Shown here piece by piece: positions 32,180-40,947 of a DNA stretch of 64,000 nucleotides. Origin of the DNA: Escherichia phage PBECO4; the sequence record KC295538. One strand, given 5' to 3'. Made by a program: the position numbers and the translations under genes. How positions within the stretch are numbered: position 1 is the stretch's first letter; each line of letters starts with the position of its first letter. The notes under the pieces are model-generated. The model made no database searches. It was not told where the DNA came from and was given only the letters and a program-made list of their open reading frames with translations.

Positions 32180-32185
32180 CATAAT

Positions 32186-32210
32186 GCCAGTACTCTGTAC
32201 TGGCTTTCTT
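32186..32210 (+). terminator. cassette hairpin + T-run (terminator) preceding TATAAC/SD of next paralog
   Basis: gccagtactctgtactggc followed by tttctt. Confidence 0.55.
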
Positions 32211-32249
32211 ATTTGTATTAAATATAGTATAACAAATAAAGGAGGGAAT

Positions 32250-33389
32250 ATGTTACCTTTTGCAAGAATGGTTAAGTACGGGAATATCGCACCTGAACTG
32301 ATTCTACCTAAAAACAGGTTACAATGTTCTGCTGATGCCAAATTTTATTTACACACAAATGGTAATCTATATTGGTTTGGTTCTTCAGCATATGGACAAA
32401 GTGGTAATGGTTCATTGGACTCTTCAACTGAATGGACTCTTGTCAACTCAAATGTTACACGATATTGGGGTGGGGTACAAGGAACAATTGCTATAAAGAA
32501 AGATGGTACTATTTGGTACACTGGTAGACGTACTGTTATTCCAATACTATCTTCAAACACTAACGGCGTTTGGGTTGATATAACACAGAACTTTACTGAT
32601 TTCGGTGTCAGTGCAGATGATATTGATAGTGTTGTGATATCTTCGTGTATGCGTGTATTTTTAAAAAATGGAAAGTGGTTCTACTGTGGTGCTGGTACTG
32701 GTGGTGTTTTTGGGAATGGATCAACTTCAAGCGTTTCACGATTCACCTATAGTACAATAGAAAATGTTATCAGTGCTGGTTGTGCAATATATAGTACTGG
32801 ATTAGTACTAAATGATGGTTCATATTGGTATGCAGGTAGAACGTTTGTATCAGGAACGACGACACAAAACTTGCTCACATTTACACAAGATACTTCGATT
32901 AGTAATGCAATTAAAGCAGTCAATACAAATGAAACTTCTTATATATTTCTTAATGATGGTAATGTTAAAGTTGCATCTATTAACGACTATGGACAAGCAG
33001 GTACAGGAAATAGGTCAGTAGCCCCAATGAGTACATTAATTCCAAATTTATCATTCCAAGGAGAAGTGGAGTTGGTGGGTGAGCTTGGGACAAACCTTAC
33101 CGGACCATCCTGTATAATTAATAATAATAATAAGTTATTTTCATGTGGCCTTAATTCAAATGGTCAATGTGGTATTGGTACAACTGATATGTATATAACA
33201 TCATTCGCTGAAATGGATCTTACTGCATTAGAAGGTAGTAATCTTAGTAGTTTTTGTAAGAGCTATTCTTATACGATGTTAGTTGACGAATATAATAATT
33301 TATACACATGTGGTGTACCCAATCTTACTGGAATGTCTTCAACTACTGTACCAACAAGGGTTCCTGATTCACTTCTACCGTGGAAATAA
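32250..33389 (+). CDS. RCC1-like repeat beta-propeller protein, paralog 3
   Basis: MLPFARMVKYGNIAPE; YGQSGNGS, NDYGQAGTGN, NSNGQCGIGT. Confidence 0.7.
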   Translation: MLPFARMVKYGNIAPELILPKNRLQCSADAKFYLHTNGNLYWFGSSAYGQSGNGSLDSSTEWTLVNSNVTRYWGGVQGTIAIKKDGTIWYTGRRTVIPILSSNTNGVWVDITQNFTDFGVSADDIDSVVISSCMRVFLKNGKWFYCGAGTGGVFGNGSTSSVSRFTYSTIENVISAGCAIYSTGLVLNDGSYWYAGRTFVSGTTTQNLLTFTQDTSISNAIKAVNTNETSYIFLNDGNVKVASINDYGQAGTGNRSVAPMSTLIPNLSFQGEVELVGELGTNLTGPSCIINNNNKLFSCGLNSNGQCGIGTTDMYITSFAEMDLTALEGSNLSSFCKSYSYTMLVDEYNNLYTCGVPNLTGMSSTTVPTRVPDSLLPWK

Positions 33390-33395
33390 TATAAT

Positions 33396-33420
33396 GCCAG
33401 TACACTGTACTGGCTTTCTT
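33396..33420 (+). terminator. cassette hairpin + T-run
   Basis: gccagtacactgtactggc tttctt. Confidence 0.55.
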
Positions 33421-33460
33421 ATTTGTATTAAATATAGTATAATGAATAAAGGAGGGAAAT

Positions 33461-34609
33461 ATGTTACCTTTTGCAAGAATGATGAATTATGGGAATATTG
33501 CCCCTGGTAAGGATAGGCGTTTTAAAATATATTCAAGTGATTCTATGTATCTTCATGATACTTATACTAATAAGTTGTATGCATCTTCTGCGACGAATTG
33601 GGGTACTGGAACAGGTGTAGCATCGAGTAAATTTATTCTTTGTGCGGAGAATGTTAAACGAGTTCTATTGGAAGATAACAGTAGTAGTTGTCAATTGTAT
33701 GAAGAGAAAGGTACTGGAAAAGTTTTTATCACTGGTAACACGAAGGCATTCACTGGTGTAACTGATACAAAAACTTTGTGGACGGACTGTACTACGTGGA
33801 TAACATCAGGTGGTATTAATGTTTCTGATATAAAATACATGAGTAGTTTTAATGATATGAAGGTGAATTTGATAACAAACGATGGTACGTTGTATTGTTG
33901 TGGAGTTAACAATAACTCGAACCTATCATCATTTGGTGATGGTACAAACATTAATTCTTTTAACACATTCAAAAGGGTAGATACTATAACTTCGGTCAAA
34001 AAGGCAGTTGGTAACATATACCTAAAAGAAGATAATACTTTATGGGGTTGTGGTTTTAACTATTACTATCAGTTAGGTACAGGTAATCAAACTTCTATTA
34101 CTGGGGTGACGATGATTTCTTCAGATGTTATAGATTTTGATGTAAGTTATCAGAGTACATTTTTTATTAAATCGGATAATAATTTGTACGCTTGTGGTAA
34201 ACAGTTCGGTGCACAATACGGGAACGAATTTGGCACAGGTGGTACTTCTTCATCTACCGATATACAATACAAAACTCCGACATTATTGAGTTCAGGAGTT
34301 TATACTCTATATACTTGTGTTAGTAACATGGCATCACATATAGTTAAAGGTGATGAAGTTCTATACGCATCTGGGTCGAATGGATTTGGTCAATTAGGTG
34401 TTGGTAATAATATTAATCAGTACTCATATACTCCTTCGTATACTTCGTTTAATAGTTCGTGTAATTTGGTACGCACTCCATCTGGTTCACTTATACTTAC
34501 GGACACTGAGAAATTATATTATTGTGGGTATGCTATGGTAGTAATGGGGGGAATTGCTGGACAAAACATTCTTAGTTATACAGAAGTTGATATGTCATTT
34601 ATACAATGA
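33461..34609 (+). CDS. RCC1-like repeat beta-propeller protein, paralog 4
   Basis: MLPFARMMNYGNIAPGK; YYQLGTGNQ, NGFGQLGVGNN. Confidence 0.7.
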   Translation: MLPFARMMNYGNIAPGKDRRFKIYSSDSMYLHDTYTNKLYASSATNWGTGTGVASSKFILCAENVKRVLLEDNSSSCQLYEEKGTGKVFITGNTKAFTGVTDTKTLWTDCTTWITSGGINVSDIKYMSSFNDMKVNLITNDGTLYCCGVNNNSNLSSFGDGTNINSFNTFKRVDTITSVKKAVGNIYLKEDNTLWGCGFNYYYQLGTGNQTSITGVTMISSDVIDFDVSYQSTFFIKSDNNLYACGKQFGAQYGNEFGTGGTSSSTDIQYKTPTLLSSGVYTLYTCVSNMASHIVKGDEVLYASGSNGFGQLGVGNNINQYSYTPSYTSFNSSCNLVRTPSGSLILTDTEKLYYCGYAMVVMGGIAGQNILSYTEVDMSFIQ

Positions 34610-39595: not shown

Positions 39596-39605
39596 TTATT
39601 TTAAA

Positions 39606-39630
39606 TGCCAGTACAGAGTGCTGGCTTTTC
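39606..39630 (+). terminator. cassette hairpin + T-run
   Basis: gccagtacagagtgctggc ttttcttttt. Confidence 0.5.
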
Positions 39631-39670
39631 TTTTTGATTAAATATAGTATAATGAATAAAGGAGGGATTT

Positions 39671-40876
39671 ATGTTACCTTTTCCAAGGATGATAAAATAC
39701 GCAAATAAAATGAAAGTTCCTGAAGTGAAAGAAATCTTTATTTACAATGGTTATAGTGCGTCAGTTATTCCAGCAACAGCACTCTTACTATTATATAAAA
39801 ATGGAGACTTAATGGGTATAGGTGGAACTAGTTCACAAAACTATGGATTCGGAAATGGTGTACCTAATGCGAAAGTAAAAGAGTGGGCTTTAATATACCA
39901 AAATGTAAAACGTTTTAGAACAGCCCAAGGTTCTTTTAATTTAATCCAAACCGAAGATAATAAATTTTATTACAGTGGCGTAGGTAGAGCTATTGGTACA
40001 GGATTAAGTACTGTCAGTACTTATACTGATTGTACTTCATATTTTACATCAGTATTCAATGCAACACAATTGTCGCAAATTAAGGACATTCAAATTGTAG
40101 GGGAGGGTATTTTTGTTTTACTTCAAAATGGTACGCTATATGGAATGGGGGCCAATACACAGGGATATTTTGGTAATAACACAACCACAAGATTATCAAC
40201 ATTTACTTCAATTAATACGAATGTGGATAGTGTAAAAACAGGTTCAAGTGCAGTGATTGTGCAGAAAATTGATAAAACACTTTGGGTCACTGGTCAAAAC
40301 ACATGGGGTTCACTTGGTATAAGTAATGGTGAAACTAACGTTAAAGTATGGACACAAATGGGTGCATTAGCCAACAATACTGTTATACATTATGAACTTG
40401 GTGGGAGTGCATCATGGGTTGTATCTAAACACAACACGAATAATACATATACAGTTCGTGCAAGTGGGATTCAATCGGAAGGTAACTTGGGTAATGGTTC
40501 AGCCGCTTCATCAGGGACAGTATTATCTACAATCTCCACTCTACCAATATCAGATAATATGGAAATGAAATCAAATTCATTAACATATGGTGGGCTTACG
40601 GTTAAAACTAACAATTCACTTTATATGTGTGGTATAAACACATATGGTAGGCTCGGTCGCGGTAATACCACATCAAGTACTACATTTGTAGTTCCAGTTG
40701 ATGCACCTAAAGTTGGCAGCATCGAGTTATTCTGTCCAAGTGAATGTACAAATGTGTATATGGATAATCAAGGGGATGTGTATTTGAGTGGCTATATCCC
40801 ACAAGCGACAGGTACAACAGTTTCTGATTATTACACTAAATTTCAATTATATAAAATACCCAGTCGTGGTATATAA
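39671..40876 (+). CDS. RCC1-like repeat beta-propeller protein, paralog 9
   Basis: MLPFPRMIKYANKMKVP; YGRLGRGNTTSS, NYGFGNG. Confidence 0.7.
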   Translation: MLPFPRMIKYANKMKVPEVKEIFIYNGYSASVIPATALLLLYKNGDLMGIGGTSSQNYGFGNGVPNAKVKEWALIYQNVKRFRTAQGSFNLIQTEDNKFYYSGVGRAIGTGLSTVSTYTDCTSYFTSVFNATQLSQIKDIQIVGEGIFVLLQNGTLYGMGANTQGYFGNNTTTRLSTFTSINTNVDSVKTGSSAVIVQKIDKTLWVTGQNTWGSLGISNGETNVKVWTQMGALANNTVIHYELGGSASWVVSKHNTNNTYTVRASGIQSEGNLGNGSAASSGTVLSTISTLPISDNMEMKSNSLTYGGLTVKTNNSLYMCGINTYGRLGRGNTTSSTTFVVPVDAPKVGSIELFCPSECTNVYMDNQGDVYLSGYIPQATGTTVSDYYTKFQLYKIPSRGI

Positions 40877-40882
40877 AATAAA

Positions 40883-40909
40883 GCCAGTATTTTGTACTGG
40901 CATTTTTTT
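40883..40909 (+). terminator. cassette hairpin + T-run (variant)
   Basis: gccagtattttgtactggc attttttt. Confidence 0.5.
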
Positions 40910-40947
40910 GTCCTAAATATAATAACGATTTACATTTGGAGGATACA

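Follow-up and report, generated by a model that had tools for sequence, protein, structure and literature searches.

How does a phage keep, and alter, a run of genes that have diverged from one another while the sequences between them have hardly changed? The question is raised by a stretch of 64,000 nucleotides (nt) of Escherichia phage PBECO4 (sequence record KC295538), called the window throughout, in which ten RCC1-like beta-propeller genes lie head-to-tail on the + strand at 29859-42100 with small genes on the - strand as neighbours on both sides. A first-pass annotation had limited the array to 32184-40947, which is too small. It had also described a cassette of hairpin, TATAAT box and Shine-Dalgarno sequence (SD) before each propeller gene and had proposed that these conserved flanks could mediate exchange. 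From a comparison with related phages it seems likely that RCC1-like propeller genes are shuffled at this locus, recombining through their composite cassettes. Each gene would be an insulated unit of transcription and translation and every product would carry the same N-terminal peptide. As the cassettes are the sole nucleotide homology between the gene bodies, ordinary homologous recombination there, within one genome or between co-infecting relatives, would have several outcomes: whole units may be deleted or inserted, units may be replaced and re-ordered, units may be imported from other lineages with their cassettes, and the cassettes may be homogenised within a genome (concerted evolution).

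The array and its cassette

The genes were named by orthogroup letter and run D, E, F, G, H, I, J, O, P, M. In order, the cassette between them consists of the upstream stop codon, an 8-bp hairpin, a T-run, TTAAATAT, TATAAT, AAGGAGG(G), the ATG and about 45 nt of coding sequence (CDS) for MLPFxRMxxYGNIxP, of which the first ~14 codons give the peptide MLPFxRMxxYGNI. A repeat search returned seven copies of a 120-nt unit at a spacing of about 1.2 kb; the conserved block, earlier put at about 70 bp, is therefore about 120 nt long and extends some 45 nt into the next CDS. The expectation that the same cassette precedes each propeller gene is borne out at seven junctions, E>F, F>G, G>H, H>I, I>J, J>O and O>P, where it is complete. 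P>M has a degenerate copy without TATAAT, and two other junctions hold part of the cassette: the first gene, D, has the promoter/SD/leader part without the full hairpin, and D>E has the SD and the conserved 5′ CDS leader and nothing more, with neither hairpin nor promoter. D and E mostly travel as a pair. The start of gene D is the ATG at 29859, not 29841. Coordinates, all on the + strand of the window, are as follows.

29811..29908, +, leftmost junction (^>D): TAAATATGATATAAT promoter-like box, AAGGAGGG, conserved 5′ CDS
29859..31061, +, gene D: RCC1-like propeller, 400 amino acids (aa) (Pfam, AlphaFold2 (AF2) model, fold match)
31049..31115, +, D>E junction: SD AGGAGGG and conserved 5′ CDS
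31070..32179, +, gene E: RCC1-like propeller, 369 aa (Pfam)
32175..32294, +, cassette E>F: hairpin 32186-32204, T-run, TAAATATAGTATAAC, AAGGAGGG, ATG 32250, leader codons; TATAAC in place of TATAAT
32250..33389, +, gene F: RCC1-like propeller, 379 aa (Pfam)
33385..33504, +, cassette F>G, the reference copy: hairpin 33396-33414, T-run 33415-33424, TAAATAT 33429-33435, TATAAT 33438-33443, AAGGAGG 33449-33455, ATG 33461, leader to 33504
33461..34609, +, gene G: RCC1-like propeller, 382 aa (Pfam)
34605..34724, +, cassette G>H: hairpin 34616-34634; 95% identical to the F>G copy
34681..35871, +, gene H: RCC1-like propeller, 396 aa
35870..35989, +, cassette H>I: hairpin 35879-35898, 4-nt loop TTCA
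35946..37125, +, gene I: RCC1-like, frameshift-split (35946-36125 + 36049-37125)
37122..37241, +, cassette I>J: hairpin 37133-37151
37197..38348, +, gene J: RCC1-like propeller, 383 aa (Pfam)
38344..38463, +, cassette J>O: hairpin 38355-38373
38420..39595, +, gene O: RCC1-like propeller, 391 aa (Pfam)
39595..39714, +, cassette O>P: hairpin 39607-39625; its 3′ arm, GTGCTGGC, gives a U-G wobble in the + strand RNA
39671..40876, +, gene P: RCC1-like propeller, 401 aa (Pfam)
40872..40992, +, degenerate cassette P>M: hairpin 40883-40901 (GCCAGTAT..GTACTGGC), T-run, TAAATATAATAACGAT, GGAGG, ATG 40948
40948..42100, +, gene M: RCC1-like, frameshift-split (40948-41172 + 41204-42100)

The hairpin GCCAGTAC-N3-GTACTGGC occurs with zero mismatches at 32186, 33396, 34616, 37133 and 38355, with variants at 35879 (the 4-nt loop), 39607 and 40883. 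No match to the hairpin pattern was found in 100 dinucleotide shuffles, which together with the seven 120-nt repeats confirms the repeated layout of hairpin, T-run, TATAAT and SD. The promoter/SD string AAATATAGTATAATGAATAAAGGAGG was present seven times at three mismatches or fewer, where none is expected. Each hairpin folds at about -12.4 kcal/mol with z-scores of -2.7 to -4.8, and there are 19 terminator-like sites where shuffles predict 5.8. No copy of the cassette lies elsewhere in the 64-kb window. In a blastn search covering 39 phage records the number of places matched per genome was close to the number of array junctions in those genomes that were segmented, and the sole match to the promoter/SD string in an exact-pattern scan of IMG/VR was 121Q itself. 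An Rfam scan of the whole window returned no family and a tRNA scan of it found none.

The naming of these genes as propellers is supported both by Pfam, where RCC1 and/or RCC1_2 repeats score above gathering in nine of the ten proteins (H being the exception) and WD40_RLD stays below its cut-off, and by an AF2 model of gene D. The latter is an all-beta propeller with a predicted local distance difference test score (pLDDT) of 75.5 and a predicted template modelling score (pTM) of 0.79, which matches UVR8, the RCC1-like domain of HERC2 and RCC1 with E-values of 1e-23 to 1e-15 and template modelling (TM) scores of about 0.7. The bodies are as divergent as had been claimed: paralogs in the window share 21-29% amino-acid identity, and blastn gave no match between the bodies of any pair. 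The frameshift that splits gene I is present in every relative that carries the gene, copies of I being 97-99.8% identical, and that in gene M in every genome with M (~96% identical). Programmed frameshifting was considered for both and rejected for want of a slippery site, and the splits were treated as conserved frameshift mutations. Genes I and M are probably long-lived pseudogenes, or are expressed as two parts.

Probable recombination between arrays

Megablast of 32000-41000 against GenBank phages gave matches exclusively to Asteriusvirus, a group of ~350-kb jumbo phages that infect E. coli and Salmonella and are like 121Q, PBECO4 and slurp01. No GenBank phage record covered more than 80% of this query in a single piece, the nearest genome being CRJP21 at 99.5% identity over two blocks. 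The loci compared were those of UE-S1, slurp01, CRJP21, SHEFM2K, SD-15_S21, 121Q, JNE01, SD-2_S15 and phAPEC6, and later those of Munch and EJP2. Arrays were cut into units at the start motif and the unit bodies were clustered at ≥88% nucleotide identity. In ten genomes the arrays hold 9-16 units in differing orders; their flanks are colinear and 97-99.5% identical, while the number and order of units between them differ. The orders are:

slurp01: ABCDEFGHIJKLM
SHEFM2K: BCDEFGHIJNLM
window: DEFGHIJOPM
CRJP21: DEF-HIJOPM
SD-15/SD-2: DEFGH-JOPM
121Q: GQEFHRSJTNUM
UE-S1: GVWEJRHOX
JNE01: DYIWHJZOP

The first-pass annotation had named co-linear relatives as the result that would speak against exchange, and the unit orders of related genomes prove to differ. 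The differences are whole-unit insertions or deletions (indels), replacements and permutations. One and the same position is held by KL, NL or OP, and slurp01, SHEFM2K and 121Q all have other units in the slot of gene O. Gene G is the first array gene in 121Q, UE-S1 and phAPEC6, follows E-F in the window and is missing from CRJP21; I stands before H in JNE01 and J before H in UE-S1. M is always the last unit wherever it is carried. Identity is uneven along the array, so that between the window and slurp01 genes D to I are 99.0-99.8% identical and J 90.0%, and between the window and 121Q gene F is 99.8%, H 89.8% and J 98.1% identical.

By megablast, all in-array block ends fall in cassettes for the relatives other than SD-15/SD-2, where they also fall inside gene bodies. 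Since the cassettes are the sole shared sequence, ends would be expected there anyway, and direct marks of recombination were therefore sought. Every unit that CRJP21 shares with the window is 99.9-100% identical between the two. The F>H junction of CRJP21 agrees with F>G of the window as far as the SD spacer, and with G>H of the window from codon 14 on, which places the crossover within 41 identical nt of 5′ CDS. The ^>D junction of the window is similarly composed, its left part corresponding to slurp01 ^>A and its right part to slurp01 C>D with the switch inside the SD, and this chimera accounts for the A-B-C indel. Against slurp01 and SHEFM2K the window has its maximum-likelihood change-point in the I>J hairpin loop, at 37142, where the mismatch climbs from 0.17% to 9.5-14%. 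In the comparison with JNE01 the D|E change-point is 31083, which is within the conserved leader, and this junction lacks both hairpin and promoter. Leader and body are often of different ‘families’, the leader being the first ~37 nt of the gene: window J and slurp01 K have identical leaders, and the leaders of 121Q E and G differ from those of the window. Crossovers have been placed in the hairpin loop, in the SD and within ~40 nt of the CDS start, which would make the stretch from about codon 14 to the stop codon the exchangeable module.

A further comparison is provided by EJP2, a divergent Asteriusvirus with its own type of cassette (ACCAGTAC-TGAAATAC-GTACTGGT, T-run, GTAAATACATTATAAT, GGAG) at nearly all junctions in the portion fetched. 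Cassettes are 89% identical within the window and 86% within EJP2, though 62% between the two, and the orthologous bodies of window and EJP2 are 77.5% (D) and 86.6% (C) identical, with no nucleotide similarity between paralogous bodies inside the window or inside EJP2. It follows from this contrast that the paralogs are older than the split of the lineages and that cassettes were homogenised within each lineage. The cassettes are thus under concerted evolution, and synonymous sites of the leader are homogenised as well: at shared amino acids the same codon is used in 77% of cases in the first ~15 codons and 46% in the rest of the genes, and the codons shared in the leader include non-preferred CCT and rare GGG. 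In UE-S1 and JNE01, gene W matches EJP02_505 at 93-94% identity over the portion fetched. EJP2-type cassettes stand on both sides of it, inside arrays that otherwise carry cassettes of the window type. W is a unit transferred along with its cassettes. Together with the two chimeric indel junctions and the switch at 37142, it supports the proposal that the conserved flanks are sites of exchange. The Asteriusvirus genus encodes gp46/47-like and EndoVII-like recombination proteins.

Not all observations sit easily with shuffling through cassettes. Change-points are also found inside genes, at 35292 between the window and SD-15 and at ~32410 between the window and 121Q, and in SD-15/SD-2 gene I was lost by a joint between its leader and the hairpin that follows, made at 4 nt of microhomology. 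Near-identical 120-nt repeats could also mislead short-read assemblies, a worry that is eased by the recurrence of the same orders in independent isolates; a two-unit duplication in phAPEC6 spans the origin of the record and may be an assembly artefact, and was not counted as evidence. The breakpoints within bodies and the microhomology deletion mean that the cassettes are to be taken as available homology, not as proven hot spots or preferred sites. General homologous recombination would act wherever homology exists; between unrelated bodies the cassette alone offers it.

Could the cassettes be kept solely by constraint on regulation and on the peptide, with array content changing by unrelated illegitimate events? 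The core TTAAATATAnTATAAT, the SD, the stem and M[LI]PFxR..YGN are kept as far as Salmonella phage Munch despite different codons and flanks, and the deletion of gene I used microhomology, not cassette homology. Constraint of this kind does not, however, account for spacers, loop variants and synonymous sites that are common to the paralogous junctions of one genome and differ between lineages, nor for two indel junctions that are precise chimeras of the flanking cassettes, nor for block ends lying in cassettes in all relatives but the two SD phages, and we regard it as very unlikely to be the whole explanation. We give a little less credence to the idea that the hairpin is a site for a dedicated recombinase or nuclease, either integron attC-like or an enzyme that binds CAGTACTG. 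Its stem, conserved out to Munch, is built on CAGTAC/GTACTG, part of an over-represented palindrome (AGTACT, 266 sites in the window against 21.6 expected), one breakpoint lies in a hairpin loop, and Arbiol et al. made the same suggestion for the stems of other phage cassettes (PMC2839356). The crossovers are nevertheless scattered over the hairpin loop, the SD and the 5′ CDS to +40, as general homologous recombination gives; junctions without a cassette (D>E) recombine too, within the 5′ CDS, and next to the array there are small unannotated open reading frames (ORFs) and no integrase-like gene. Integron-like site-specific recombination was rejected on the scattered crossovers and the lack of an adjacent integrase gene.

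Least probable of all is that the arrays are remnants of one large ancestral array, reduced by unit loss during vertical descent without exchange or re-ordering. Many of the differences are indeed the presence or absence of whole units, and the blocks D-E-F and O-P hold their order in several genomes. Descent of this sort would not invert relative orders, as is seen for G and E-F (121Q, UE-S1, phAPEC6), I and H (JNE01) and J and H (UE-S1), nor would it leave adjacent orthologs at least ten-fold apart in divergence (99.8% vs 90%) or surround gene W with foreign-type cassettes, and unit loss itself runs through cassette recombination. Shuffling through the cassettes is thus the explanation that we prefer.

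Predicted expression signals and related cassettes

Among ten genomes there are 23 hairpin variants over 88 of 110 junctions. The loops are free to vary (TCT, ACT, AGA, TCA, TTCA, AAA, CTTGA and others) and the stems still pair; several stem changes are G-U wobbles in the + strand RNA, and outer pairs change compensatorily, from G-C to A-U in the EJP2 type and to GACAGTACT/AGTACTGTC in Munch. As a test of which strand folds, about seven variant types favour the + strand RNA and three the - strand, a difference that is suggestive though not significant. Munch keeps TTAAATATA[AG]TATAAT, the SD and the peptide M-I-P-F-x-R..Y-G-N, with different spacers and codons and with several junctions that have no cassette. 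This footprint of conservation argues for selection on the peptide, on a hairpin and on a box that resembles a promoter.

From these features it is plausible that the cassette acts as terminator and promoter, though there are several points that make a conventional promoter harder to accept. The best -35 matches agree with TTGACA at 2-3 of six positions, next to a perfect TATAAT at -10, and a simple sigma-70 consensus scan of the window did not call the cassette promoter, for which reason we do not term it an early promoter. It is unlike the phage's own abundant early promoters, which have a clear TTGCAA-N17-TATAAT. A T4-like late promoter was also considered and rejected, as the cassette lacks the motif TATAAATA, which precedes phAPEC6 structural genes. 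The Asteriusvirus genus encodes a gp55-like late sigma factor. Just downstream of the array, between two - strand genes, there is another + strand hairpin, CCAGTACT-TAAT-AGTACTGG, at 42758-42777, followed by a T-run; it could block + strand read-through leaving the array.

Composite elements of this kind are known from T4-type phages as promoter-early stem-loop (PeSL) cassettes (Arbiol et al. 2010, PMC2839356; Comeau et al. 2014, PMC4122927). Both are intergenic composites of ~100 nt with stop codon, stem-loop terminator and promoter (these two predicted in the present case), SD and start codon, both stand beside variable accessory genes, the present one, too, presumably making each gene an insulated expression unit, and in both close relatives show indels and replacements with chimeric cassettes, the crossovers falling between -10, SD and ATG or in the loop. 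By inspection, however, there is no evident sequence resemblance. The stem is CCAGTAC/GTACTGG, always ahead of the promoter, as opposed to the GGGG..CCCC of the PeSL type; the missing -35 consensus means that the promoter is probably not of the ‘early’ sigma-70 kind; and the homology runs ~45 nt into the CDS. The phage is an Asteriusvirus (a Rak2/121Q-like jumbo phage) rather than T4-like, and the genes are paralogs of one family where PeSL-flanked genes are unrelated ORFans. The formation of circular excision products (mini-circles) during infection counts among PeSL traits; for the present cassette it would be hypothetical, and promoter and terminator activities are putative. The cassette falls outside the PeSL family by sequence and promoter type, with a layout and recombination signatures that match the PeSL concept.

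The array also resembles multigene families under concerted evolution in that its repeats are uniform inside any one genome but differ from lineage to lineage, in that the number of units varies and in that some members are probably pseudogenised (the frameshifted I and M). It differs in that homogenisation is limited to ~120 nt of regulatory sequence and leader, the bodies staying divergent.

A literature search found no description of such cassette shuffling in Asteriusvirus. ‘Chromosome condensation regulators’ have been listed, with no mechanism, among the proteins that differ most between two isolates of 97% average nucleotide identity (PMC13070987), and cassette shuffling would explain such differences between near-identical Asteriusvirus isolates. 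It would mean that cassette-mediated modular shuffling, defined in T4-like phages, extends to jumbo phages of the Rak2/121Q type, at a locus that looks unrelated, and in an unusually clean form, with at least ten units, chimeric junctions, import with foreign cassettes and concerted evolution.

The window also contains a second family of regulatory cassettes, of which 18 or more copies, every one of them on the - strand, lie at 5000-25100 and 50248-50304 (for example 6190-6248, 14412-14471, 18988-19046, 22277-22333 and 23277-23333). In order it has an A-tract with AGTACTTGCAA (-35 TTGCAA/TTGACA), 17 nt, (TG)TATAAT, GTTTTACAT, a GGGG..CCCC stem-loop, the SD and the ATG, and it precedes many small - strand genes. 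The family fits the T4-type definition of PeSL, a sigma-70-like early promoter with a G/C stem-loop, better than the RCC1 cassette does. There are in addition 12 copies of a conserved hairpin, AAAAGGGCTGACCGAAGTCAACCCTTTT, between an A-run and a T-run, with a UUCG loop on the - strand, which probably form a family of (bidirectional) terminators between - strand genes:

5923-5971, 8180-8228, 11399-11447, 15019-15067, 46099-46147, 47889-47937: AAAAGGGCTGACCGAAGTCAACCCTTTT hairpins 1-6
48813-48861, 53011-53059, 54100-54148, 55677-55725, 55860-55908, 59102-59150: AAAAGGGCTGACCGAAGTCAACCCTTTT hairpins 7-12

Virion association and the shared N-terminal peptide

The propellers of a related phage have been found in the particle. 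Mass spectrometry (MS) of phAPEC6 virions identified eight array proteins, gp003, 005, 006, 007, 009, 010, 549 and 551, named there ‘DNA condensation protein’, with low peptide counts of 1-5 (PMC7247149, Table 1). Among them gp549 is the ortholog of window G and gp005 that of window J. The RCC1-like gp001 of GAP32 is likewise reported as a structural protein (PMC5259590).

The peptide MLPFxRMxxYGNI is invariant at the N-terminus across the paralogs. In the gene D model residues 1-24, which comprise it, have pLDDT below 50 and lie outside the confidently modelled propeller. The same peptide begins proteins of other kinds: Munch_544 (542-1345 of the Munch locus) matches Gly_rich_2 (PF21722, E 1.4e-5) and has no RCC1 repeats, and unit R (121Q gp243, 9263-10000 of the 121Q locus; also in UE-S1) has no Pfam match. 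A docking or targeting role for the peptide is a reasonable hypothesis.

T4 internal proteins (IPs) share a conserved N-terminal capsid-targeting sequence, and a docking role for MLPFxRMxxYGNI would complete the parallel with them. The first-pass annotation likened the locus to the internal-protein loci of T-even phages. The likeness is a good one, since one N-terminal peptide, whose targeting role is hypothetical, is common to all the paralogs and since array members were found in phAPEC6 virions (PMC7247149), to which GAP32 gp001 (PMC5259590) can be added as a virion-associated product. In the T-even loci (Repoila et al. 1994, as summarised in PMC2839356) the genes are likewise interchangeable and variable among close relatives. 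Gene content is hypervariable at a fixed genomic position, as it is here between flanks of 97-99.5% identity, and both kinds of locus are bounded by promoter/stem-loop elements, PeSL-like ones in the T-even IP loci (described in PMC2839356). The array differs in that its products are seven-bladed propellers of ~40 kDa, whereas IPs are small basic proteins, and in having 9-16 units per genome.

More tentatively, cassette and leader together may serve as a universal ‘plug’ behind which the virion-carried proteins of a whole library can be set, with the peptide docking the cargo in the particle or targeting it there and the array being a repertoire, driven by recombination, of delivered effectors or binding modules. 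We hold this to be possible but somewhat doubtful. Were it so, any cargo placed behind the cassette would be separately transcribed, efficiently translated and tagged with the peptide, and other folds would be acceptable, as in the Munch protein matching Gly_rich_2 and in unit R. The products would be inner-body or injected proteins, or a decoration of the hair-like fibres, and the system a jumbo-phage counterpart of the T4 internal proteins built of 40-kDa propellers. The array would in any case be the fast-evolving, virion-associated part of these therapeutic-candidate phages, and swapping cargo between cassettes suggests itself as a route for engineering.

Some minor features of the window may be added. 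The flanks of the array, at 25000-29800 and 43159-45225, are tandem families of small paralogous genes, many of ~60 aa on the left and of ~112-123 aa on the right. Their copy number differs among relatives, SHEFM2K having many more of the ~60-aa genes. Left of the array, at 24540-24691, there is a short stretch of tandem units, similar to CGTCTAGC/CATCCAGC, that repeat every 8 nt.

The AGTACT palindrome, on which both the stem of the RCC1-cassette hairpin and the early promoters are built, exceeds the expectation from base composition 12-fold in the window, and CAGTACTG occurs 56 times against 0.7 expected, while palindromes of the same composition (ACTAGT, TCATGA, AGATCT) are at or under expectation. 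Its density is 3.4 per kb in coding sequence, in all three frames, and 7.6 per kb in non-coding sequence, with T-rich-C on one side and G-A-rich sequence on the other. It is also enriched in the structural region of phAPEC6 at 150000-175000 (50 vs 8.5) and in Munch (29 vs 3.3). A literature search pairing ‘AGTACT’ with ‘jumbo phage’ found no paper. The first part of the window, 1-4000, has zero AGTACT sites, where composition predicts ~1.3. ORFs of ≥100 aa are missing from it up to 3970, a direct repeat of 226 nt is present (266-491 and 535-760), and it looks compositionally unlike the rest of the window.

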